A stretch of 64,000 nt of DNA from Escherichia phage vB_EcoM_TH18. The stretch lies in sequence record ON075799; one strand, 5' to 3'. The notes under the pieces were generated by a model. That model had not been told where the DNA came from and did no database searches. It saw only the letters and a list, made by a program, of their open reading frames with translations. The stretch's first letter is position 1; every line of letters starts with the position of its first letter. The translations under genes were made by a program, and so were the position numbers. Below, in pieces: positions 31,775 through 63,247 of this stretch.

Positions 31775-32560
31775 TTATATTCTTTTATACAAGGTAGGAG
31801 CTACAATTTTTGGAATAACAACAGGTTTGACTATTTCTTCTTTTTCAAGATAATTTATCCCAGAAGAAATGGCGTCGACCCAATCGTCTTTTCTTGTCGT
31901 TGTACTCCTTTCCCCATTGAACTTTTCAAGCTCTGTCATAAGGGCTTCATAAGTTTTAGGATCAAAACTATCACGAACTATTCTCACCATACCTGCTTGA
32001 GCAAGTTTTGCAAAAGGTGTAAATCTTGTTAATTTTGATTTATTGGTTGGTGTAGGATCTTTTTCTACTGTAAATCCTTCCGCTATTAGTTCACGAGAGC
32101 TTGTTAAAAATTCACTTATTCCTGCTTGTCCTGGGTCAACACTGAAAATTATGGTAACATCATCACCATCAAAATAAGCCTGTTTCTTAATGATAACATC
32201 ACGTTCCCCAGCTTTTTTACAGAATCTCCCCTGCGTTTGAGTTGAATATCTACCATCATCAAAAAATTCAGGACAATAATCACCAGACAAATAGTAAAAG
32301 CCATCATTGTCTTTACTTACCTTAACAGATGCTGTAAAGTCAGGATATCTGTTTCCAGATGTTCTTTCTGTACCTGCTTTATCATACGGACGAACAGATA
32401 CAACACCGAGAGGTAAGCAGGGAACCTCTTTTAAATAAGATCTCTGGAAATAGTTTGCCCCTTCAGGTCTTGCGTTCCAGTTTCCATGCAATAACTGGGC
32501 TTTTTCTACCTCTGGAAGACCTTCAAGGAATGCTAGATAATCTGGGTTATTCTCCAGCAT
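31775..32560 (-). CDS. terL: Terminase large subunit, exon 3 (nuclease domain; 5-prime boundary approximate)
   Basis: Open frame continues upstream of the listed Met; acidic motif KDDWVDA near C-terminus; preceded by group I intron core. Confidence 0.6.
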   Translation of the reverse strand: MLENNPDYLAFLEGLPEVEKAQLLHGNWNARPEGANYFQRSYLKEVPCLPLGVVSVRPYDKAGTERTSGNRYPDFTASVKVSKDNDGFYYLSGDYCPEFFDDGRYSTQTQGRFCKKAGERDVIIKKQAYFDGDDVTIIFSVDPGQAGISEFLTSSRELIAEGFTVEKDPTPTNKSKLTRFTPFAKLAQAGMVRIVRDSFDPKTYEALMTELEKFNGERSTTTRKDDWVDAISSGINYLEKEEIVKPVVIPKIVAPTLYKRI

Positions 32561-33575
32561 GGGAGGATTATCGAATCCTTGTATTCAAGGTTGGACGCAA
32601 CGCCAACCCCCGCACCACTACGTGCTGCTGCATGTCACCATGCAGAGTAGACTATATCACCACCCACACATAATGGGTGCTTCGCTTTTCGAACGCCATT
32701 AGCTTGCGATCTACTCCCTTGCGGGATAGTCGTTGAACTACATTACCATTCATAGTTGTTTGAGATATAGATGTAAGTTTTTCTATCTTTTATTCTTCTA
32801 ACAAGATTAAAACTAACACCCCATTTTTTAGATATCTTATTAATGCTTAGGATACCGTCTCTCAGATCTTCACATATCCCTATAACTTTGGATTCACTAA
32901 TTCTGTTGGAAGAAGGAACCATCCTGAAATTAAACTCTTTAGAAATGTCTGGGTAGACTCTCCCAGCTTTGATACTACTAACCACAGTCTGCCCAATACC
33001 AAACATCTCACTGATATCCTTTACTCTAGCACCCTGCTCAAGTAATCTGCATATCTCAAGGGCAGTGTTATCATCAAGAGGCCTGTAACTGTTTACATAA
33101 GACTTCTTAAGCCCTATTTCATGTGCGTGATGTGTGCTTTCCTTTGCAGTTGTCCACTCAAGATTCCACGCTGCGTTATTAAGTTTGTTTCCATCTAAAT
33201 GGTTCACTTGAGTTTTTGTATCAGGGCTATCATTCTCGACAAAAGCAAAAGCAATAACCCTATGGACAAGAACTTGAAACTTTTTACCATCCTCACACAA
33301 CGTTAACATTGCATAGCCAGTTTTCTTATGGACATTAGGATGTAAAAATTTGTGGGAATACAAACTATAAATTCTTCCATCATACGTCGCACAATAATGG
33401 GAATACCCTAAAAATCCTAAATTTTTCATCTCAAACATTCTCCCTACTACAGTTTCGGAAAAGTAATTATAGCTGCTGATTGCCCTTATACAAAGGGTTT
33501 CCCAGCAATTAACGAAGTTATTCGACATGCATTACTGCATGAAGCCACTATTCTTTTAATGGTTGCGGAAATGAA
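32561..33575 (-). mobile_element. Group I intron 2 carrying an HNH homing endonuclease ORF (boundaries approximate)
   Basis: Minus-strand reading shows P-like AAUUGCUGGGAAA, P5 hairpin, Q-like AAUCAGCAGC upstream of ORF, and R-like GUUCAACGACUAUC plus S-like GAUAUAGUCU downstream, giving P7 pairing GACUA/UAGUC. Confidence 0.65.
32743..33438 (-). CDS. HNH homing endonuclease (232 aa from MFEMKNLGF…)
   Basis: Typical N-terminus (KNLGFLGY…YDGRIYS) and HNH motif VNHLDGNKLNNAAWNLEW; SD AGGGAGA upstream of Met; lies inside intron between P/Q and R/S elements. Confidence 0.75.
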   Translation of the reverse strand: MFEMKNLGFLGYSHYCATYDGRIYSLYSHKFLHPNVHKKTGYAMLTLCEDGKKFQVLVHRVIAFAFVENDSPDTKTQVNHLDGNKLNNAAWNLEWTTAKESTHHAHEIGLKKSYVNSYRPLDDNTALEICRLLEQGARVKDISEMFGIGQTVVSSIKAGRVYPDISKEFNFRMVPSSNRISESKVIGICEDLRDGILSINKISKKWGVSFNLVRRIKDRKTYIYISNNYEW

Positions 33576-33914
33576 GGAAAATGAAAGCGGTTTAGGCTTT
33601 CTTTTCTCATCCTTGCCATCCCAATACTTTTCAATTAATTCTTGCTCTGAGTCACCCCAGATAAATTCTCCGTCACGTCTTATAAACCATCTAATCACCC
33701 CATCTCGTTCAGGTATAGGATATCCCTCATCGTCTAAATACCAAGAAATCAACTCCTTAATCTTATGATCTGGATCAGGGTTACAAGAGATAACCATCCT
33801 GCTCGGATATTTAGAGTTTGAACGTAGACGAGATATCAGATAATCTATCTGTGACCATGTGAATTGTGTTCCCTCATCAAAGCCGATGAAGGTATACTGC
33901 AACTTATTGTCCCC
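33572..33914 (-). CDS. terL: Terminase large subunit, exon 2 (Walker B region; boundaries approximate)
   Basis: Hydrophobic stretch ending in FIGFDEGT (Walker B-like), then ISCNP (coupling-motif-like); no ATG start; flanked by intron cores. Confidence 0.6.
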
Positions 33915-34141
33915 TCAGTTCGCTACACTGAGGCGGTGTGCCAAGACACCCGCCACATGTTTCCATGTGGAACAGACTATATCTTCCATCCTTGGCGTGC
34001 CGTTTGGATCACCAATCGCTTGTGATTCTACTCTCCTACACTCATCGGAGATAGTCGTTACACCCAGATTTTATATTTCCATATTCTGTGGCACGGTATT
34101 TTCCCATAGGGAGTTCCACCGTTATAGGCACGAAGGGCAAG
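33903..34141 (-). mobile_element. Group I intron 1, ORF-less (boundaries approximate)
   Basis: Minus-strand reading contains R-like GUGUAACGACUAUC and S-like AAGAUAUAGUCU (near-consensus), several hairpins, no ORF; separates Walker A and Walker B coding segments. Confidence 0.6.
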
Positions 34142-35512
34142 CTATTCACCCTGATGATCTAATTTGTTATTCTCATACTCCATGTGTCTCCACAACACCT
34201 TTGCCCCAGATGGGAAAATTGCTTCCAGAGCTTTCTCCCTGAACTTCGGCTTCCATTCCTTATCGAGTTGCAAATAAATACTTTTTGCTGTATCAAAAAG
34301 CCCACCTGCACCTGTCAATTGAGGTGTTGTCCTACGAAACATTATACATGCTGTCTGCGGGTCATCGACATAAGCAAGCGGCATCAATTGTAGGAGATAT
34401 GATTTTCCACTATTCCCAGTGACAACCACACAATCTTCTAGTCTGGTAACAAAGAAACCTGTTTGTGTTACAAAGCAGTATTTAAACCCATCCGTAGGTA
34501 TAAACTCTTTAAACTCAGCTTTTCTGTCTTTATTAGCCAGTGACCTTAATCCTTTTCCTCTAGCCATAATATTAACAGTATAACTGTCCTTTCCACTTCT
34601 TGTATCATGGTTTATGGTGGTATTATAACCAAGAGAAGATCCTACAAACTGAACAAAATCAGCGTTCATCTTATGGACAGTAAAATATCTACCTGTAAAG
34701 CTGTTATGTGTTTTACCGCCATATGGCTTACAAAAAGAACCATCCCAATGAAAAATCTCATCAAGTATTATCTCCAGTTGTTCATTTGAACACTGATAGT
34801 ATTTCTCTGTAAATTTTTTATCAGGATATTTAGGCCATACAATAACCTCGTACTGTTCCCCAGTGGTATATCTTTCACTGGGTTTTGATCCTCTATCTTC
34901 ATATCTTAATCCAAACTTTTTACAAAGTTCGATTAAGCGGTCATATTTACGCTTTTTAGCAAAGCGCATCTGTGTATAATTATCTTTCCCTTCTTTAACA
35001 ACTCTCCCATCAGCCATGACAGCAACCTGAAGCCGTAATTCCCCTTCTGTCATGTCTATCCCAGGACCATCATAGTTAAATGTAGTTATGAACTTACCTG
35101 TCCAACCTTTTTTAACAGAGTTGTTATGTCTTTCTGCCACTTCAGAAAAAGAAAGTGTTCTTGGCTGTGATTTATAGTCTGGTTTATAAATCACAGTATG
35201 TTCGTCAGATAGCTCTTGACAAATGCCATTACCTTCTATTCTTGTAAGTTTTTCGCAAGGGAGTTTAACAAACTCTAAAGGGGGGATAAATTTAGCCTCC
35301 CCAGTGGCTTTGTCATATTGCAGAATGTCCTGCCCTGACCATTCTGATATCTTAATCCAGCCAGATGGTGTCAACACCTCGTGGTCTTTAGACAAACACC
35401 CGGCGGCCCCACCAATTATTAGAATTTGGGCTTTACTCTCCAAAATCATTTTTTGCTTAGGACTGGCAGGTCCAAATACTTTACTCAAAAGACCTCCATA
35501 TTTTCTATTCAT
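34142..35512 (-). CDS. terL: Terminase large subunit, exon 1 (N-terminal ATPase segment including in-frame intein)
   Basis: N-extein ends IIGGAAG; C-extein resumes SGKSYLL, restoring Walker A GGAAGSGKS. Confidence 0.7.
   Translation of the reverse strand: MNRKYGGLLSKVFGPASPKQKMILESKAQILIIGGAAGCLSKDHEVLTPSGWIKISEWSGQDILQYDKATGEAKFIPPLEFVKLPCEKLTRIEGNGICQELSDEHTVIYKPDYKSQPRTLSFSEVAERHNNSVKKGWTGKFITTFNYDGPGIDMTEGELRLQVAVMADGRVVKEGKDNYTQMRFAKKRKYDRLIELCKKFGLRYEDRGSKPSERYTTGEQYEVIVWPKYPDKKFTEKYYQCSNEQLEIILDEIFHWDGSFCKPYGGKTHNSFTGRYFTVHKMNADFVQFVGSSLGYNTTINHDTRSGKDSYTVNIMARGKGLRSLANKDRKAEFKEFIPTDGFKYCFVTQTGFFVTRLEDCVVVTGNSGKSYLLQLMPLAYVDDPQTACIMFRRTTPQLTGAGGLFDTAKSIYLQLDKEWKPKFREKALEAIFPSGAKVLWRHMEYENNKLDHQGE
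34412..35398 (-). mobile_element. Intein (about 329 aa) inserted in the terminase Walker A P-loop
   Basis: Begins CLSKDHEVLTPSGWIKISEW (intein block A-like), ends …VVTGN followed by Ser; size suggests nested endonuclease, with weak LAGLIDADG-like segments (AVMADGRV, ILDEIFHWDGS). Confidence 0.65.
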
Positions 35513-46984: not shown

Positions 46985-47382
46985 GATTTATCTCCTCTAG
47001 CACGATTGACGATAATATAATTTCTTGGTTTCACGTTACCATCAGAATCCTGAAATCCTGATCTGACACGCCTGACATAACCAAAGCTCTCCATCCGAGA
47101 CAGAAATTCAGACACTTTGGTTCGTGAGTTTTCGTTCCACCCCAACAGACCACACAAGGATTGCTGTGACGGAAAGAATACCAGTTCCCCACCCAAGGGG
47201 TTCCGACTCTTGAAATACTCGTATCTCCACAACAAGCGTATCAGTCTTTGCAGATCGCTTGGTGATAACCGTTCATCAAAAACCCACTCTGTCGGCACAG
47301 CGATGTACGACCCAGCTTTCGGATTTACATGGAAACCCCCAACATTCGATTTCAAGGCAAACTCCGGTGTGTAATTCAACAC
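46981..47382 (-). CDS. Hypothetical protein (133 aa), first gene of the leftward unit
   Basis: ORF overlapping PRPS-like start by 4 nt. Confidence 0.4.
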   Translation of the reverse strand: MLNYTPEFALKSNVGGFHVNPKAGSYIAVPTEWVFDERLSPSDLQRLIRLLWRYEYFKSRNPLGGELVFFPSQQSLCGLLGWNENSRTKVSEFLSRMESFGYVRRVRSGFQDSDGNVKPRNYIIVNRARGDKS

Positions 47383-47451
47383 CGAGAATGCTACTCATAA
47401 CACCACACAATGTCAACCCCTCCCATATGTCCCCATTTCAGGGACATTATG

Positions 47452-47549
47452 ATCTAATATAATATATATTATATAATATAATTTAATATAATACTACGTA
47501 TTATATATATTATAATATATATATATAATTTATATAAAATACACTAAGT
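47452..47549. repeat. AT-only low-complexity (TA-rich) palindromic tract at the strand-switch region
   Basis: About 100 bp of only A/T with alternating TA runs and a central TACGTA palindrome. Confidence 0.8.
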
Positions 47550-47976
47550 CTTGAAGAATGTCAAGACTTGATTTTAAATATTTTTGTTGATATGATTCGA
47601 TTGAGTCGAATCGTATGGTTCGATGATTTCGAATCATAGAGTTCATGTTGTTTTGCCTGAAATCGTGAGTCGATGAGACTCTTCAGGCAATACGTGAGTG
47701 TGTAAGATGCTCACTGCGCTGATAGCTTGTGATCATCTAACCCTCATGAGCCATTCTGAGATAAACCCACATCAACAAACCCCACAGGTTTGTCTCTGTG
47801 TGTTAATCTCAATCATGGATTCGGGTTGTCACAAGTCACTATGTGACTCTGTGTGGGGATTTCGAATGTGTACCGGAGCATGGCGCACAGGACTGGTTCA
47901 TCTGTCCGTCTCAACTGGGGCGCGGCGGGGGTTAAGGTTTAGTTTTACGTTTTGTGTGGGTGTGGAGGAGAGTTTT

Positions 47977-50064: not shown

Positions 50065-50895
50065 ATGACAAGTATTTTACACACGACAGGTATTTTACCA
50101 CACTATCAGAAGGAATATTCTTTCCCTGATTTATCTGGGGATATGTTGCAAATATACGACAAAGTGCAAGGCGAAGTGTCGGAGCTACAATTTAGTTCAG
50201 ACCCTGATGATGAGCAAGAGTTTGATAAACAGATTTGTCGTGTAGAAAACGAGCTTATAGAGCTACAATCATTAGCCAAATCAACAGATATCGAAGACTT
50301 AAGGCGACACGTTGAGAATCTTGAAAATTTAGTGTTCGGGCTTTCGCAAGCTATTATAAACATTGGTGAAATTGCTAAAATTGCCTCTGACAAGTTGCCA
50401 GACAACACAGAAGATATTGAAGAAGCGTTGCAGAATATCTGCTATGAAGGAAGTTCTGCTCTCGGTTGTGAATGTAATCTAGGAAATGCTCTTGAAGAGC
50501 GTGGGTGGAACCTGTTCCAAAAAACTTTTGTTTATCGTGTTATTGGTGGTGAGTTTCCTCGGCTCATACAACTTAATGCCCTTTTTGGAAACAGCCAGGG
50601 TGATAATATTGCATTAGGTATTGATGGCTGGTTCTGTTTAAGAGGTAAAGAATTAGCATTTTGTTGTGGCGATGATGTGTTAATTCTCAATGCTTATAAA
50701 CCAGGTGTTGAAATAACAACAAAATTAAATGGTAAGTCCACTAAATTTCACACCAGAGAGTTGGAAGATATTTTCATGGACATATTTGATCCTACAGAAG
50801 ACGAAATTCTTATGTATGAAATGACCAGTGGAAAAAGATATGATATTTTGTCGTGGAGAAATATTTTTGGCAAGAAGAGAAAGCCTGTAGCGTGA
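50065..50895 (+). CDS. Early hypothetical protein (276 aa)
   Basis: Long ORF followed by hairpin ccctgtga…tcacaggg. Confidence 0.5.
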   Translation: MTSILHTTGILPHYQKEYSFPDLSGDMLQIYDKVQGEVSELQFSSDPDDEQEFDKQICRVENELIELQSLAKSTDIEDLRRHVENLENLVFGLSQAIINIGEIAKIASDKLPDNTEDIEEALQNICYEGSSALGCECNLGNALEERGWNLFQKTFVYRVIGGEFPRLIQLNALFGNSQGDNIALGIDGWFCLRGKELAFCCGDDVLILNAYKPGVEITTKLNGKSTKFHTRELEDIFMDIFDPTEDEILMYEMTSGKRYDILSWRNIFGKKRKPVA

Positions 50896-51158
50896 TATTT
50901 TATCACTGATATTTGTTTTCCCTGTGATATTTTTGTCACAGGGAAAGTTTCAATAGTGGATATTTTCTTGATACTTTAAATTCCTACCAGAAATTTAAAT
51001 TCTGTAAATTTAGAAAACTATTACTTATAGGCGTTTCGACACAATTTTGTTATGAAAGCCTTGTTTTTATATAAAAACCTGTTTTAGCATGGGTGGTAGG
51101 ATCACACTCCATACTACCTTTATTCCTACAGATGAGCATCTCCATGTTCGAAAACTCG

Positions 51159-51340: not shown

Positions 51341-51742
51341 TATAGTGCGAAAAAATTTTTATGGGTATCATAATTCTATCACACACTTAAACGCAAAGCA
51401 ACATAAAAATTTTTGTTGAATGATAATCATTCTCATTTGCAGAATGACAGGTAGGATCAGTGTCTTATCCTCCCCCGTTGACCATCGTCGCCGTAGTTTG
51501 AAGTTTATAGCCGTTCTCGGCTTATCTCTTTGTTAGAGATAGATTACCATAATTGATAAAGAAAGCAAGCGTTAATTGTAATCTTTACGTTTCTTTACAA
51601 ATTTATTTTAGACAAACTACCGGCGATCGACCTTCCAACCAGCGCCCTGGTATGTTAGCCCCGCCTTTACGCCGTGGGGATGGCGTTGCCTCTTCTGTAT
51701 GTTAGGCATTATAAGCCCAATCCCTGGGCTTGTCAAACATTT

Positions 51743-55873: not shown

Positions 55874-56011
55874 ATGATTGAGATTCTTAAAAATCCTATT
55901 TTGTGTGGTATGGTTGTTTCTGTGTCACTTCCGATCGTGCTGTTAGTCGTTAGCGAAATAGATGATTTTATTTTCAATAAAAGACTTGCCAACAAGTCAA
56001 AAACAAATTAA
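55874..56011 (+). CDS. Small hydrophobic peptide (45 aa)
   Basis: SD GAGGT upstream; single predicted transmembrane helix; promoter-like TTGCAA…TATAGT upstream. Confidence 0.35.
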   Translation: MIEILKNPILCGMVVSVSLPIVLLVVSEIDDFIFNKRLANKSKTN

Positions 56012-57007: not shown

Positions 57008-57223
57008 TTGGTGTTAATATTATGTTAGAGAATATTGTGTTCTTGTGTGGTGTCGTTCTTGCTGTTGTGGTTGGCCTCCTGGCGACGATGGCGAATATTG
57101 TGATCTCAAACAACCTGGCAGGGTAAAAATTTTTAAAAATAGTATTGACATACTTGCGGCATATGGTATTATTTACCACATGAAGGGGCAAGATTGACTT
57201 GCCTCACTAACGAAAGGTAAATA

Positions 57224-60084: not shown

Positions 60085-60276
60085 ATGGATGTATCACAAG
60101 TTAGAAAGGTATTAGCAGCGTTACGCTATCACAATCATAGCAAGGTGAAGAATGATCCTGATTATGTTGATTCAAGTCTGGAGGAAGACACCTTGCAAGC
60201 TATAAGCCATATGCAGGAATTGCTTAAGCGTATGACAGAGAAGAACAGATCTGACTATATAGGTGACGAGATCTAA
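60085..60276 (+). CDS. Early small acidic protein (63 aa)
   Basis: SD AAGGAG upstream. Confidence 0.45.
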   Translation: MDVSQVRKVLAALRYHNHSKVKNDPDYVDSSLEEDTLQAISHMQELLKRMTEKNRSDYIGDEI

Positions 60277-60372: not shown

Positions 60373-60741
60373 ATGAGCAAATCAGCAATTAAAGCACTTG
60401 AAAAAGCGCAAAAAGTGATCGCTACTTCCACCACTGGCGCAAGTATTAATCTGATCGCTTACTTGGAAGATGAAACTATCCGTAAAAATTGGCGTAATAC
60501 TGATTTGCTGGCTTGCTTATTGATTAATAGTGTTGCTAATGCTTTCCAGTGTGAAACAGCCGAGAGCCTGGAAGAAAACTTGTTTGACAATATGGATCAA
60601 GCCATTGAAACCTATATCCAATCAAATCTGGATAGCTGGAACAGTAAAACATGGCCCGACAGCTTACGCGATACAACTGACCAACTGATCCGCCTTGCGG
60701 TGATGGTTGAACGCGATAACGTTTACAGCCGCACAAAGTAA
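60373..60741 (+). CDS. Early hypothetical protein (122 aa from MSKSAIKAL…)
   Basis: SD AAAGAGGA upstream of this Met; followed by terminator. Confidence 0.5.
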   Translation: MSKSAIKALEKAQKVIATSTTGASINLIAYLEDETIRKNWRNTDLLACLLINSVANAFQCETAESLEENLFDNMDQAIETYIQSNLDSWNSKTWPDSLRDTTDQLIRLAVMVERDNVYSRTK

Positions 60742-60772
60742 GATAGTACAAAGGGCGCTTAATGCGCCCTTT
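60742..60772 (+). terminator. Intrinsic terminator (aagggcgcttaatgcgccctttcttttt)
   Basis: GC hairpin plus T-run; last plus-strand signal before the repeat-rich region. Confidence 0.7.
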
Positions 60773-60779
60773 CTTTTTG

Positions 60780-62600
60780 CCCTAACAAACATGATAAGTT
60801 TTATCTATCAAAACACCACACAGAAAGAAAGTGAATAAAACGCGGTATCGAGCTAAACGAGGGTGGGCAATACAACGGCAAGGCTAAACAATTAAGGCTG
60901 TTATAACGCGATTTAGGCCGCTTAAAATCGATCCCCACCACAAACAACACCCACAAAATGACCAAAACGACACAACATGACTTAAATGATAACCATTCCC
61001 AACAACATAAGCATTTTTATGCAATTTGAGTGAATATCTATTTAAATGATAATGACTCTCAACAACAAACTAACACGACCGAAGCGATTCAATCGCCTAC
61101 CACAAAATTAATCACTTGTAAAGAGTAATTTGAAAAAAGCTGCGTAGGTGGCGCGACCGTAGGGAGCGACACAATAACGCAGTAGTAGCCCCTCACCCCT
61201 CCTTCCAGTCGCCCCCGGTATCGGGGCAGCGTTATTGTGTCGCTAAGCGACAACGCGTTAACAATTTTGCAAGATTTTATTAATACTTTAACTGTTATAA
61301 TTTTATTGCAAAATTGTTAACCTACTGCGTTATTGTGTCACGTAGTGATTAGTTACATATGTAACTAACAGCTATCACTGCAAAATTGTGTCACGTAGTG
61401 ATTAGCTGAGAATCAGCTAACCCGTAAAACGGGCTAAATTGTGTCCGGTACGGATGAGATAATCTCTCATTAATCCCCGATTATTACGCAGTAAATCACC
61501 ATGAATCACCTGTTTTTAACCCTGTTATTGTGTTCTTGCCCAGGGATAACCGCTTACTATGCGGTTAAATGCTGTATAGTCGCTACGCGATTAAGCGCGA
61601 TGCGCTTAACCTGCAAAGCAGGCTTCTAAGTGCCTGAAATGCCAGATCAATTTGGTCACTGCGTGATCATGATTGCGACAATAATTTGCTTATGATTTGC
61701 TATTTATTTGTTTGTAGTTGGTTATAGTTGTTATGGTTTGTTTGTTAATAGTTGCTATAATTTTGCTTTATTTGATTTTATTTGTTAAACACCCTTTTAT
61801 CATTCCTCTTACATTTTCGCAATATTTATTTTTGTTATCGTTTTCCCTCATTTCATTTCGTTATTGAAAACAAGAATTATTATCAATGCGCCTTAACAGG
61901 CTGACAGGTCTGTTAGTGGGCTAGCTCTCTGTGTGGTTATGTGTCGGCTGTTATTGTTAGCTTGCTTATTGTTGTGTGGTGTATGTACCAGTTAACTAGT
62001 ACATTGTGTGGTGCGCATAACGTGTATTATGTTAAATCGCTAAGCCCACAAATCAGGTGACTTGTCAATAACAATAAGTGCTGTGTGCGGTAGGTCTGAC
62101 CTATCAGTGTGCCCCTTTGTTGTGTGGTGCTTCCAATGGCTGGTCTGCCTGCTGTCTGTGCTGCGTCAGGAATCGAGGGGACTCGATCGCAATAGCTGTA
62201 AGATATTTTGTAAAGATTCGTAGTTTTTCTTGACACCCACAATCGTCTGCCTAACCCTTCAGAGATAAATACTTCAGAGATTTATCTGGGCTTTTTACCC
62301 TTCAGGTATAGAGACGTGTGTTTTATCCCTCACTTCTGAGATAAAGCCGTAGATATTTTCACTCTTCACATCATGTGCAAGTTAATACATGTATGTCTTT
62401 ACAGACGGGGTGGGGTAACAATCAGGAAGTGGTCTGGCAGTGATAACGCACTGGATAAAAGCTCTGTGTGGATTGTCGATGATATTTGTGTGTGTGGGAA
62501 ATGCTGATAGGCAAGAGATAAGACACTTGTCTCCGGCAGGGGTGGGGTGTGGAAAAGAAATGGGCCTGTCCGACCCATTGTGTTACAGAGATGAAACGCC
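60780..62600. other. About 1.8-kb repeat-rich non-coding region (nested inverted repeats, direct repeats, GT-rich tract, TTGTGTGGTG motif family)
   Basis: No ORF with SD; 15-bp inverted repeat GCGACACAATAACGC/GCGTTATTGTGTCGC; 16-bp inverted repeat GTTAACAATTTTGCAA/TTGCAAAATTGTTAAC; direct repeat ATTGTGTCACGTAGTGATTAG x2; perfect palindrome AGTTACATATGTAACT. Confidence 0.7.
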
Positions 62601-62604
62601 TATC

Positions 62605-62856
62605 TCACCATTGACCAGGTAAGCCAATATCAAGGCCAAATTCGTGACATTCATCCCAGTCAAGACTTTGATTCCAGTTTGTAACTGTTTGCTCTGTGTG
62701 GTGGGTGTGTGATGCTCTCTGTGACTGCTTGGGCATCTTTTTTGTCTGGGATTTCCCGAAGAGAGGTGTGTTGTCATTAAGTCTTCCGGCAGCCTTTTCA
62801 CCCTTTTTGACTTGTCTCCCACGGGCATTCCACTGCTCCAGTGTCCTGTAACACAT
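62605..62856 (-). CDS. Hypothetical small basic protein (83 aa)
   Basis: SD AGGAGA 8 nt upstream of ATG on minus strand. Confidence 0.4.
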   Translation of the reverse strand: MCYRTLEQWNARGRQVKKGEKAAGRLNDNTPLFGKSQTKKMPKQSQRASHTHHTEQTVTNWNQSLDWDECHEFGLDIGLPGQW

Positions 62857-63247
62857 AAAATGATTCTCCTGTAATATCTGGTGTGGGAATGATAGTGGAG
62901 AATGTCAGTCGTGTCAAGTAGGTTGCTCAGAGGCGCTATTATAAAAATTTTTTGGTGGCTTTCTGGGGCTTGTTGTGGGACTGTAAACAAGCTGTGGAGC
63001 CAGATGTGACGGGGCTTTCAGCCATGTTGTGTGTTGATAGCAAATAAGGATAAAATAATCAATATAAATGCGGATAAATGTTGTTTTATTGCGGTTGTGT
63101 GACTAGTGTGTCAATTCTTGATAGGCTATGTCTTGTACATATTTTGTACAATTGTGTGGTGTGTGGAGTTTGGGTGGCAATTCCCCAGACGGGGTAGGGT
63201 AGGTTATGGTGGGGAGCAGGGGCATGGTTAGCCCCATATGATCAGGG

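Follow-up and report, generated by a model that had tools for sequence, protein, structure and literature searches.

Escherichia phage vB_EcoM_TH18, a member of the genus Avunavirus in the subfamily Vequintavirinae, carries a gene-free region of about 1.8 kb that we examined within a 64,000-nucleotide stretch of its sequence record (ON075799), hereafter called the window. An earlier note, made from the sequence alone, had described this region as dense in repeats and had offered three functions for it: a packaging site or genome terminus, a replication origin, or a structured non-coding RNA locus. A scan of open reading frames (ORFs) found no credible gene between 60773 and 62558, the interval referred to here as the gap, in which the longest ORF measures 71 amino acids. 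A hidden gene was considered and rejected because the ORFs are unconserved and because insertions and deletions (indels) relative to another Avunavirus, Av-05, are not multiples of three; at 53, 53, 29, 22, 17, 14, and 13 nucleotides (nt), they are not codon-like. Beyond the gap, the next gene lies at 62605 to 62856 on the minus strand.

The genes flanking the gap are small ORFs to which no function is assigned (phrog_15368 and phrog_25175), and transcription from both flanking operons converges on the gap. On the left, an intrinsic terminator closes a rightward operon of small ORFs of the early type, and the hairpin of this terminator is also kept in the Phapecoctavirus phages ESCO5 and WPEC1. 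On the right, a second terminator closes a leftward operon, the final gene of which (62605 to 62856) encodes the product that matches phrog_25175. The features found between and around these terminators are collected in Table 1.

Table 1. Features of the gap and its edges, with identity to Av-05 by interval (window coordinates)
Feature	Position	Strand	Description or basis
Intrinsic terminator, left gap edge	60750-60772	+	9-bp stem with 6 GC pairs, then CTTTTTG
Module A, C/A-rich conserved non-coding	60780-61140		Conservation
Element e2, conserved block with left arm of long-range inverted repeat	61146-61187		Cross-genus comparison
Nested inverted repeats	61165-61339		Repeat search
Hairpin array	61324-61644		Repeat families and folding
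Predicted direct terminal repeat, 607 bp	61645-62251		Homology to Gotham and KPP-1 terminal repeats
T-rich low-complexity tract	61680-61870		Short TTTG/TAGTTG-type repeats; left part of predicted terminal repeat
TGTGTGGTG-family cluster	61930-62129	+	Copies at 61930, 61973, 62005, and 62121
Element e1, TGTGGTGCGCATAACGTGTATTATGTTAAAT, invariant core of terminal repeat	62007-62037	+	31 nt, cross-genus identity
Conserved block at right end of terminal repeat, GATATTTTGTAAAGATTCGTA..TTGACA..GTCTGCC	62202-62251		Cross-genus alignment
Right spacer	62252-62558		Repeat search
Intrinsic terminator, right gap edge	62559-62579	-	8-bp stem, then TCTTTTCC on the minus strand
Identity to Av-05	60800-61300		88-95%
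Identity to Av-05	61300-61600		36-73%
Identity to Av-05	61800-62300		77-95%
Identity to Av-05	62300-62400		38%

The density of inverted and direct repeats in the gap lies far above that of any other part of the window. When equal-sized tiles of the 64-kb window served as background, the gap held 15 14-mers in inverted repeats no more than 200 nt apart, against a tile mean of 0.61 and a maximum of 10, and 8 direct 14-mer repeats, against a mean of 0.03 and a maximum of 1. The repeat-dense non-coding region of the earlier note is therefore real, and each feature named there was found in its place, among them a 16-bp inverted repeat, two copies of ATTGTGTCACGTAGTGATTAG, the palindrome AGTTACATATGTAACT, and a GT-rich or T-rich tract. 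Base composition is likewise uneven, with a GC skew of -0.22 in module A and, farther right, plus-strand values of +0.13 to +0.24. The cumulative skew has a local minimum at about 61400 to 61700, from which the GT-rich strand points away on either side.

The gap is 100% identical to three partial scaffolds, from Escherichia phages 18-1-2, 19-1-2, and 24-2-1. Its identity to Av-05, where the same 1.9 kb is unannotated, is approximately 80 to 90% depending on the search mode. Across genera, blocks of 27 to 42 nt are kept where the neighboring DNA no longer aligns. Four conserved blocks were recognized, namely, e1, the right-end block, a block at the left boundary, and e2. Such a pattern bears on the simplest explanation of the locus, a mere spacer or insulator between convergent operons, in which C-rich, G-poor transcripts favor Rho termination and the repeats are debris of slippage. 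As the skews indicate, transcripts entering the gap would be rich in C and A whichever side they came from, and both the hairpin array and the T-rich tract evolve fast by indels. However, the cross-genus blocks, a perfectly maintained inverted repeat, and a module A that is both well conserved in Av-05 and common to other subfamilies speak against it, and we consider a spacer function very improbable. As a separate observation, the last early gene before the gap (60373 to 60741; 122 amino acids, phrog_15368) is absent from Av-05, its product is 88 to 94% identical to proteins of Phapecoctavirus phages, and remoter homologs are found beside the ends of records from phiEco32-like phages and from some Klebsiella siphoviruses. 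The gene has the look of a recent exchange and of one that tends to be placed near genome ends.

Homology of the gap to measured terminal repeats

The comparison with related phage genomes that the earlier note had called for was run, and direct terminal repeats (DTRs) determined from reads in relatives were found to occupy the homologous gap. In the Vequintavirus phage Gotham (MT682716), a DTR of 459 bp was determined from sequencing reads (PMC7471380); it is annotated in GenBank as a repeat_region, and we verified that its two copies are identical. At least six independent Vequintavirus records start or finish exactly with the Gotham segment, and terminal redundancies of 458 bp have been reported for EdH4 and HdK5 (PMC6563267). 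The Mydovirus phage KPP-1 has a DTR of 514 bp at 116316 to 116829, established by coverage and PhageTerm (PMC9862379). The Gotham DTR lies midway in a gene-free gap of approximately 2.5 kb between convergent operons of small ORFs, a layout also seen in KPP-1, SalP219, Mydo, and GAP31; in Erwinia phage pEp_SNUABM_01, e1 is likewise surrounded by a comparable gap, but same-strand genes are annotated on either side of it. The window is collinear with Gotham, as its gene 60085 to 60276 corresponds to Gotham coding sequence 2602 to 2793 in the same relative orientation, and window positions 62008 to 62040 match the interior of the Gotham DTR in the orientation shared with that gene.

Gap alignments of five and eight phages were made in the orientation of the window, and in them the DTRs of Gotham and KPP-1, published independently of each other, have the same start column and the same end column. 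Because these shared columns map to window positions 61645 and 62251, we predict a DTR at 61645 to 62251. Its left boundary (marked here by a slash) reads ...GAAATGCCA/GATCAATTTGG, aligned as TGCCA/GATCAATTT, and its right boundary reads ...CAATCGTCTGCC/TAACCCTTCAG, aligned as GTCTGCC/TAACCCTTCAGA. The ends of deposited records proved uninformative as termini in several cases: those of SalP219 share an overlap of exactly 127 nt that resembles a k-mer overlap left by an assembler; the BME3 record contains three copies of its first 342 nt and, close to its end, a repeat of its first 788 nt; and the ends of IMG/VR contigs lie off the boundaries.

The large terminase (TerL) gives a second line of comparison. 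The C-terminal nuclease domain of the window TerL (31775 to 32560) is 85% identical to that of Klebsiella phage NDO71, which shares e2 with the KPP-1 group, and 74% identical to those of rV5 and other Vequintavirus phages. Orthology of the terminase supports the same short-DTR packaging mode in the window phage as in its relatives. The TerL gene itself seems to be split across 31775 to 35512, with residues approximately 141 to 262 at the C-terminal end of an ORF at 34142 to 35512 whose N-terminal part is PhoH-like, an HNH endonuclease ORF at 32743 to 33528, and residues 379 to 621 in 31775 to 32560. This arrangement suggests an intron, an intein, or a homing-endonuclease insertion.

By sequence comparison, homology to measured short-DTR termini was thus shown in position, boundaries, core, and terminase. 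Since the gap is both the positional and the sequence homolog of the DTR gap of Gotham and KPP-1, with alignable boundaries and core, we read it as the genome-terminus and packaging region of a short-DTR phage, with predicted physical ends, and place the probability of this reading at about 0.75. A terminus here is ordinary for the subfamily; what is new is that it has been mapped in a genus lacking its annotation, together with a conserved anatomy that had not been described.

Elements inside and outside the predicted repeat

Element e1 is the invariant core of the predicted repeat. It is identical at 31 of 31 positions in Cronobacter phage GAP31, Salmonella phage SPLA5a, and Enterobacter phage EC152, and it lies inside both known DTRs, at positions 170 to 200 in Gotham and 116529 to 116559 in KPP-1. 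In contigs of the Mydovirus and Seunavirus types, the spacing between e1 and the boundary motifs is fixed, at 274 nt on the left and 213 to 215 nt on the right. A promoter scan called no sigma-70 promoter at e1 or the conserved core; a candidate -10 element in e1 (TATTAT) loses A-11 in Mydoviruses (TTTTAT), and the -35 element is unconserved. Three e1-like copies, one of them inverted, were also seen in unrelated IMG/VR contigs, L031 (3480 to 3680, minus strand) and L021 (1240 to 1320). There they are flanked by perfect paired DnaA boxes (TGTGGATAAgcTGTGGATAA) and lie in a non-coding gap of 1.6 kb that is rich in GT and in repeats and is located upstream of a small-ORF operon.

In the block at the right end of the repeat, GATATTTTGTAAAGAT and GTC(C/T)G(C/T)C followed across the boundary by T are kept in six genera, with the full consensus GATATTTTGTAAAGAT..TTGAC..GTC(C/T)G(C/T)C, the boundary, and then TAAC.C.TCAGA. 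A second copy of GATATTT lies approximately 100 nt outside the right boundary in all six genera (window 62352). The right spacer contains three copies of (A/T)C(C/A)CTTC(A/T)G(A/G)(G/T)ATA.. (62254, 62297, and 62330), GATATTTT at 62352, copies of TGTGTGG (62465 and 62491), and the G-rich GGGGTGGGG (62407 and 62539). The TAAC.C.TCAGA directly past the boundary and the G-rich motifs recur in other genera. Two side observations concern these motifs. The octamer GATATTTT, which flanks the predicted right boundary (62202 and 62352), also occurs five times on one strand at 50767 to 50966, with spacings of 75, 52, 32, and 33 nt, as a repeat cluster of the early block. The G-rich motifs (GGGGTGGGG and GGGGTAGGG..GGGG..GGGG) occupy the plus strand beyond the right end of the predicted DTR, at 62407 to 62415, 62539 to 62547, and 63186 to 63230, the last of which could form a G-quadruplex, and comparable G-runs are found on the corresponding side of the terminus in other genera.

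The GT-rich motif TGTGTGGTG had been reported in at least five copies. Four exact copies lie within 60780 to 62600, one on the minus strand (60814) and three on the plus strand (61973, 62005, and 62121), and two further copies carry one mismatch (60936 and 61930). Two more exact copies lie just to the right of this interval (62695 and 63153), so that six of the eight exact copies in the window are packed within 2.4 kb. The copy at 62005 overlaps the start of e1, and CACCACACA in module A (60814 to 60822) is the reverse complement of the GT motif. The motif is common to Av-05 only and absent from the gaps of Phapecoctavirus and Justusliebigvirus; shorter TGTGTGG/CCACACA copies in the same orientation surround the Gotham terminus, and GT-rich motifs point away from the predicted repeat on both flanks. 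Several roles for TGTGTGGTG were considered and set aside. It is not a genome-wide signal, as the two exact copies in the early block sit in tiny hydrophobic ORFs and are a coincidence of codons; these ORFs, in gaps of the early block at 57023 to 57127 (MLENIVFLCGVVLAVVVGLLATMANIV...) and 55875 to 55990 (MIEILKNPILCGMVVSVSLPIVLL...), account for the stray matches to GTGTGGTG and TGTGTGG. Chi-like protection was rejected since the motif differs from GCTGGTGG and since its orientation on the unique flanks, given the known polarity of Chi, is wrong for RecBCD entering at the ends. Identity with DnaA boxes is unsupported, with a 6/9 match to TTATCCACA.

The T-rich tract has a GC content of 0.32 to 0.35 and an AT skew of -0.32 to -0.41. 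Because it is absent from other genera and partly deleted in Av-05 (gaps of 5, 29, and 8 nt), it is an Avunavirus-specific expansion. The 53-nt units described below, this tract, and the full TGTGTGGTG motif are all genus-specific, being found only in the two Avunaviruses or varying between them.

To the left of the predicted repeat, e2 is recognizable in Mydovirus phages (KPP-1, Mydo, and KB57), Seunavirus phages (SalP219 and GAP31), and UPEC06-like phages. Its inverted-repeat arm belongs to an 18-bp perfect inverted repeat (61168 to 61185/61322 to 61339) with a loop of 136 nt that encloses two further hairpins. The left arm can pair twice, with 61322 to 61339 over 18 bp and with 61229 to 61244 over 16 bp. 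The latter pairing is the inverted repeat that had been given as 15 bp around a GC hairpin; it is present, with GCGACACAATAACGC at 61166 and GCGTTATTGTGTCGC at 61229 and the hairpin CCCCGGTATCGGGG at 61213 to 61226 inside it, but its length is 16 bp (61165 to 61180/61229 to 61244). The second inner repeat, also of 16 bp, pairs GTTAACAATTTTGCAA (61257 to 61272) with TTGCAAAATTGTTAAC (61306 to 61321) across an A/T-rich loop of 33 nt. Folding of 61140 to 61345 as single-stranded DNA gave -49.5 kcal/mol (z = -7.1). A long-range inverted repeat of 16 to 21 bp, perfectly paired and with loops of 71 to 255 nt, occurs at the homologous place in every lineage checked (at least eight). In its arms, 9 of 16 core positions vary among lineages, each change being matched in the partner arm, and all 6 of the 18 positions that differ between Avunavirus and Vequintavirus are compensated.

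The hairpin array overlaps the right arm of this repeat. It begins with three 53-nt units (61324, 61377, and approximately 61433; spacings of 53 and 53 nt), each consisting of ATTGTGT, a small hairpin whose stem is TCAC/GTGA or TCCG/CGGA depending on the unit, and a second variable hairpin, and it continues with five or six more small hairpins. The stems differ among units yet remain paired. The exact ATTGTGTCACGTAGTGATTAG copies are at 61332 and 61385, and the palindrome AGTTACATATGTAACT (61351 to 61366) is part of a second variable hairpin. As a single strand, 61320 to 61640 folds at -54.8 kcal/mol (z = -6.5). Because Av-05 differs here by two 53-nt indels, with identity of 0.36 to 0.73, the array is genus-specific and labile. 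A CRISPR-like mini-array (26-nt repeat plus 27-nt spacer) was rejected, as the hairpins vary by unit and match no CRISPR direct repeat.

Fold potential this strong, compensated changes in the long inverted repeat across genera, and stems that differ but stay paired in the 53-nt units are what one would look for in a structured non-coding RNA locus, whose transcripts would fold into long and small hairpins and act as regulatory or anti-defense RNAs. The RNA searches gave nothing in its favor. With Rfam, the window yielded to E = 1 only a chance mir-19 match on the 16-bp hairpin (28.5 bits against a gathering score of 50), and the gaps of five relatives had no match at the gathering score in a library that covers CRISPR-repeat families. 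ARAGORN found no tRNA in the gap, with 16 tRNAs elsewhere (37.8 to 43.5 kb). No credible sigma-70 promoter feeds the region, where only 9/12 matches occur at background frequency, and the region sits just downstream of two terminators. Its best-conserved module has no consensus fold, and stems of 18 to 21 perfect base pairs with variable loops of 70 to 255 nt resemble inverted repeats in DNA more than typical RNA helices. An RNA locus is, in our view, quite unlikely.

The array also bears on a replication origin. Five copies of ATTGTGTC lie on one strand, two at 53-nt spacing (approximately five helical turns), with A/T-rich stretches nearby; these could be iterons for an initiator, with the A/T-rich loop (61273 to 61305) or the T-rich tract (61680 to 61870) unwinding to start bidirectional forks. 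The local minimum of cumulative GC skew, with the GT-rich strand outward on both sides, fits this proposal, as do the paired DnaA boxes that flank e1 in contigs L021 and L031. However, these "iterons" are genus-specific duplicates of one arm, the right one, of the conserved inverted repeat; their number varies with the two 53-nt indels, and they are absent from other genera. The skew is local, extending approximately 1.5 kb each way and not replichore-wide. DnaA boxes are not clustered, with one (TTWTNCACA, 62548) in the region against nine in the whole 64 kb, no replication-initiator gene adjoins the gap, and the flanking operons, transcribed into it, would meet outgoing forks head-on. An equally good candidate for unwinding is a pure A/T tract at 47440 to 47545. 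That tract, approximately 100 nt long (taatataatatatattatataatataattt...), lies in a 316-nt gap between a minus-strand block (gene start at 47382) and the divergent plus-strand early block (start at 47698). It could serve as a hub of divergent promoters or as a DNA-unwinding element, and it is an alternative candidate for the origin. We regard an origin in the gap as unlikely, although one could coexist with a terminus; secondary origins exist near the ends of T7.

Module A, next to the left terminator, is 88 to 95% identical to Av-05, which is above several of its flanking stretches, and it can be aligned outside the subfamily with ESCO5 and WPEC1 and with the Justusliebigvirus phage BME3. 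In those two genera it also lies between the end of an operon and the terminal repeat. It has two direct repeats spaced 60 nt apart, TTAAATGATAA..CAACAACA (60982 to 61007 and 61042 to 61067), that are Fur-box-like. No consensus RNA fold was found for the module, and on that ground a small RNA was rejected; a host origin was rejected since there was no match in 5,426 E. coli genomes. On the Fur-box-like palindromes (AATGATAATCATTATC), we note that all eight matches in the window with three or fewer mismatches fall within 51.4 to 61.1 kb. The best is AATGATAATCATTCTC at 51419 to 51437; the two in module A (60985 to 61000 and 61045 to 61060) are kept in ESCO5, WPEC1, and BME3, and boxes of a similar kind occur within the DTRs of KPP-1, Mydo, SalP219, and GAP31.

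An 83-nt piece of module A (60841 to 60923) is 77% identical to "Repeat Region 1" of T5-like phages, and this raises the thought of an injection-stop or host-anchoring region of the T5 type, whose repeats would tether the DNA as it enters, for instance by way of membrane-bound DnaA, and would thus confine expression to the first-entering segment. Two-step injection is not known to occur in the Vequintavirinae. The T5 iss has been proposed to anchor via membrane-bound DnaA, and the same author holds that Repeat Region 1, the matched part, is not the iss (Davison, bioRxiv 10.1101/866236). We found no similarity to Repeat Region 3 or the iss, the paired DnaA boxes that define such a region are absent here, and the predicted repeat is gene-free and of approximately 0.6 kb, against approximately 10 kb with pre-early genes in T5. 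A stop signal of this kind is scarcely credible at this locus.

A proposed model for processing of the ends

Among the three functions that the earlier note had offered, a packaging site or genome terminus is the one supported, through homology of the gap, the boundaries, and the core to Gotham and KPP-1; an origin finds little support, and an RNA locus no positive support. Under the terminus reading, two physical ends of virion DNA would meet in the gap on a circular or concatemeric map. The linear virion genome would most likely run from 61645 through one full turn to 62251, with the 607 bp at both ends. Two small-ORF operons would be transcribed toward the ends and halted by the flanking terminators, with cis elements in protein-free DNA between them. 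The large terminase would be expected to recognize the concatemer junction and to cut concatemers at the conserved boundaries, 61644/61645 and 62251/62252; the repeat, present once at the junction, would need to be duplicated. As recognition signals, the leading candidates are e1 and the right-end block, and the long-range inverted repeat is the best candidate for a hairpin or cruciform intermediate like that proposed for T7. The TGTGTGGTG family, the 53-nt units with their hairpins, and the T-rich tract are genus-specific elaborations.

Several observations weigh against this assignment. The ends are predicted by homology for the window phage, and the Av-05 deposit is a circular one. Conservation of the left boundary is only moderate in the window, and the predicted DTR, at 607 bp, exceeds the 459 and 514 bp of its relatives through the T-rich insertion. 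Because e1 is present in three copies by paired DnaA boxes in unrelated metagenomic contigs, upstream of a small-ORF operon, it may be an element of the promoter or origin type, serving transcription or replication instead of signaling to terminase. The local GC-skew minimum at about 61400 to 61700 is equally expected of an origin, and gene conversion alone could maintain the perfect inverted repeat.

A bolder version of the terminus reading, which we hold to be doubtful, is that the Vequintavirinae terminus has a three-part cis apparatus, comprising the cut motifs at the boundaries, e1 (27 to 31 nt), and the outside inverted repeat, that regenerates the repeat via a hairpin or cruciform, with e1 as a start of transcription or replication by which packaging is licensed, a role like that proposed for phiOR in T7. 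If this were true, the unrelated contigs in which e1 stands beside paired DnaA boxes would indicate a module, widespread and not yet described, in which binding of host factors is coupled to end processing.

Annotation, orientation, and engineering of these phages all depend on correct ends, and the current deposits of Av-05 and its relatives are circular records or partial scaffolds. Phages of the rV5 type are used in biocontrol and in therapy cocktails against E. coli and Salmonella. The mechanism of DTR-generating terminases is still poorly understood (2026 review, PMC13595956).

Comparison with known termini

The nearest measured systems are the Vequintavirus DTRs of Gotham, EdH4, and HdK5, which share with the window the subfamily, a convergent gene-free gap of 2 to 2.5 kb, and alignable boundaries. 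In Gotham, e1 is identical at 28 of 31 positions and a perfect long-range inverted repeat lies outside the left boundary, in addition to the terminase similarity given above. In contrast, the remaining DNA cannot be aligned, and Gotham lacks both the TGTGTGGTG family and the 53-nt ATTGTGTC units. The window repeat is approximately 150 bp longer because of the T-rich tract, and the ends of Gotham are measured whereas those of the window are predicted. KPP-1 shares the boundary columns, e1 inside the repeat, e2 with the inverted repeat approximately 490 nt outside the DTR, and a right-end block of the form GATATTTTGTAAAGAT..TTGAC..GTCCGTC with T after the boundary, and the related Klebsiella phage NDO71 has a TerL 85% identical to that of the window. 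It differs in genus and host, in having a single right arm with no repeated array, and in carrying Fur-box-like GAATGATTCTCATT motifs in its DTR where the window has the T-rich tract.

The Stephanstirmvirinae resemble the window in module A (the terminator plus approximately 300 nt), which is common to the Phapecoctavirus phage WPEC1 and the Justusliebigvirus phage BME3. The WPEC1 record has identical ends of 328 bp, and BME3 has a DTR of 342 bp (PMC12210895). In WPEC1, module A lies approximately 870 nt from the DTR, and the order is the same: operon end, module A, spacer, and DTR. However, e1, e2, the inverted repeat, and the boundary motifs were not found in the terminus gaps of this subfamily, and in ESCO5 and BME3 the operon across the gap is transcribed away from it, so that the gaps are not convergent. 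The long terminal repeats of T5-like phages (Davison, bioRxiv 10.1101/866236) are alike in the 83-nt similarity to Repeat Region 1 and in a repeat spacing of approximately five helical turns, 52 nt in T5 against 53 nt in the window. They are unlike in having paired DnaA boxes (in IRD'/IRC') and pre-early genes, and the T5-homologous piece, as part of module A, lies outside the predicted DTR in the window.

The concatemer junction of T7 and T3, with its terminal repeat and pac signals, is similar in outline, with exact short end repeats, concatemers cut by terminase, a junction copy that is duplicated, and repeats and an inverted repeat adjoining the terminal repeat; in the window, the inverted repeat is approximately 300 nt outside the left DTR boundary. 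A "hairpin end" intermediate in the processing of T7 concatemers was reportedly described by Chung, Nardone, and Hinkle in 1990 (J Mol Biol 216:939, listed in PMC4925675). There is no sequence homology between the two systems, the window being of a kind of approximately 121-kb myovirus against a 40-kb podovirus, and no promoter of the phiOR type for a phage RNA polymerase is present. The boundaries found across the subfamily, the invariant core, and the covarying inverted repeat offer targets for mutagenesis by which T7-style models could be examined in a second, unrelated group of phages.

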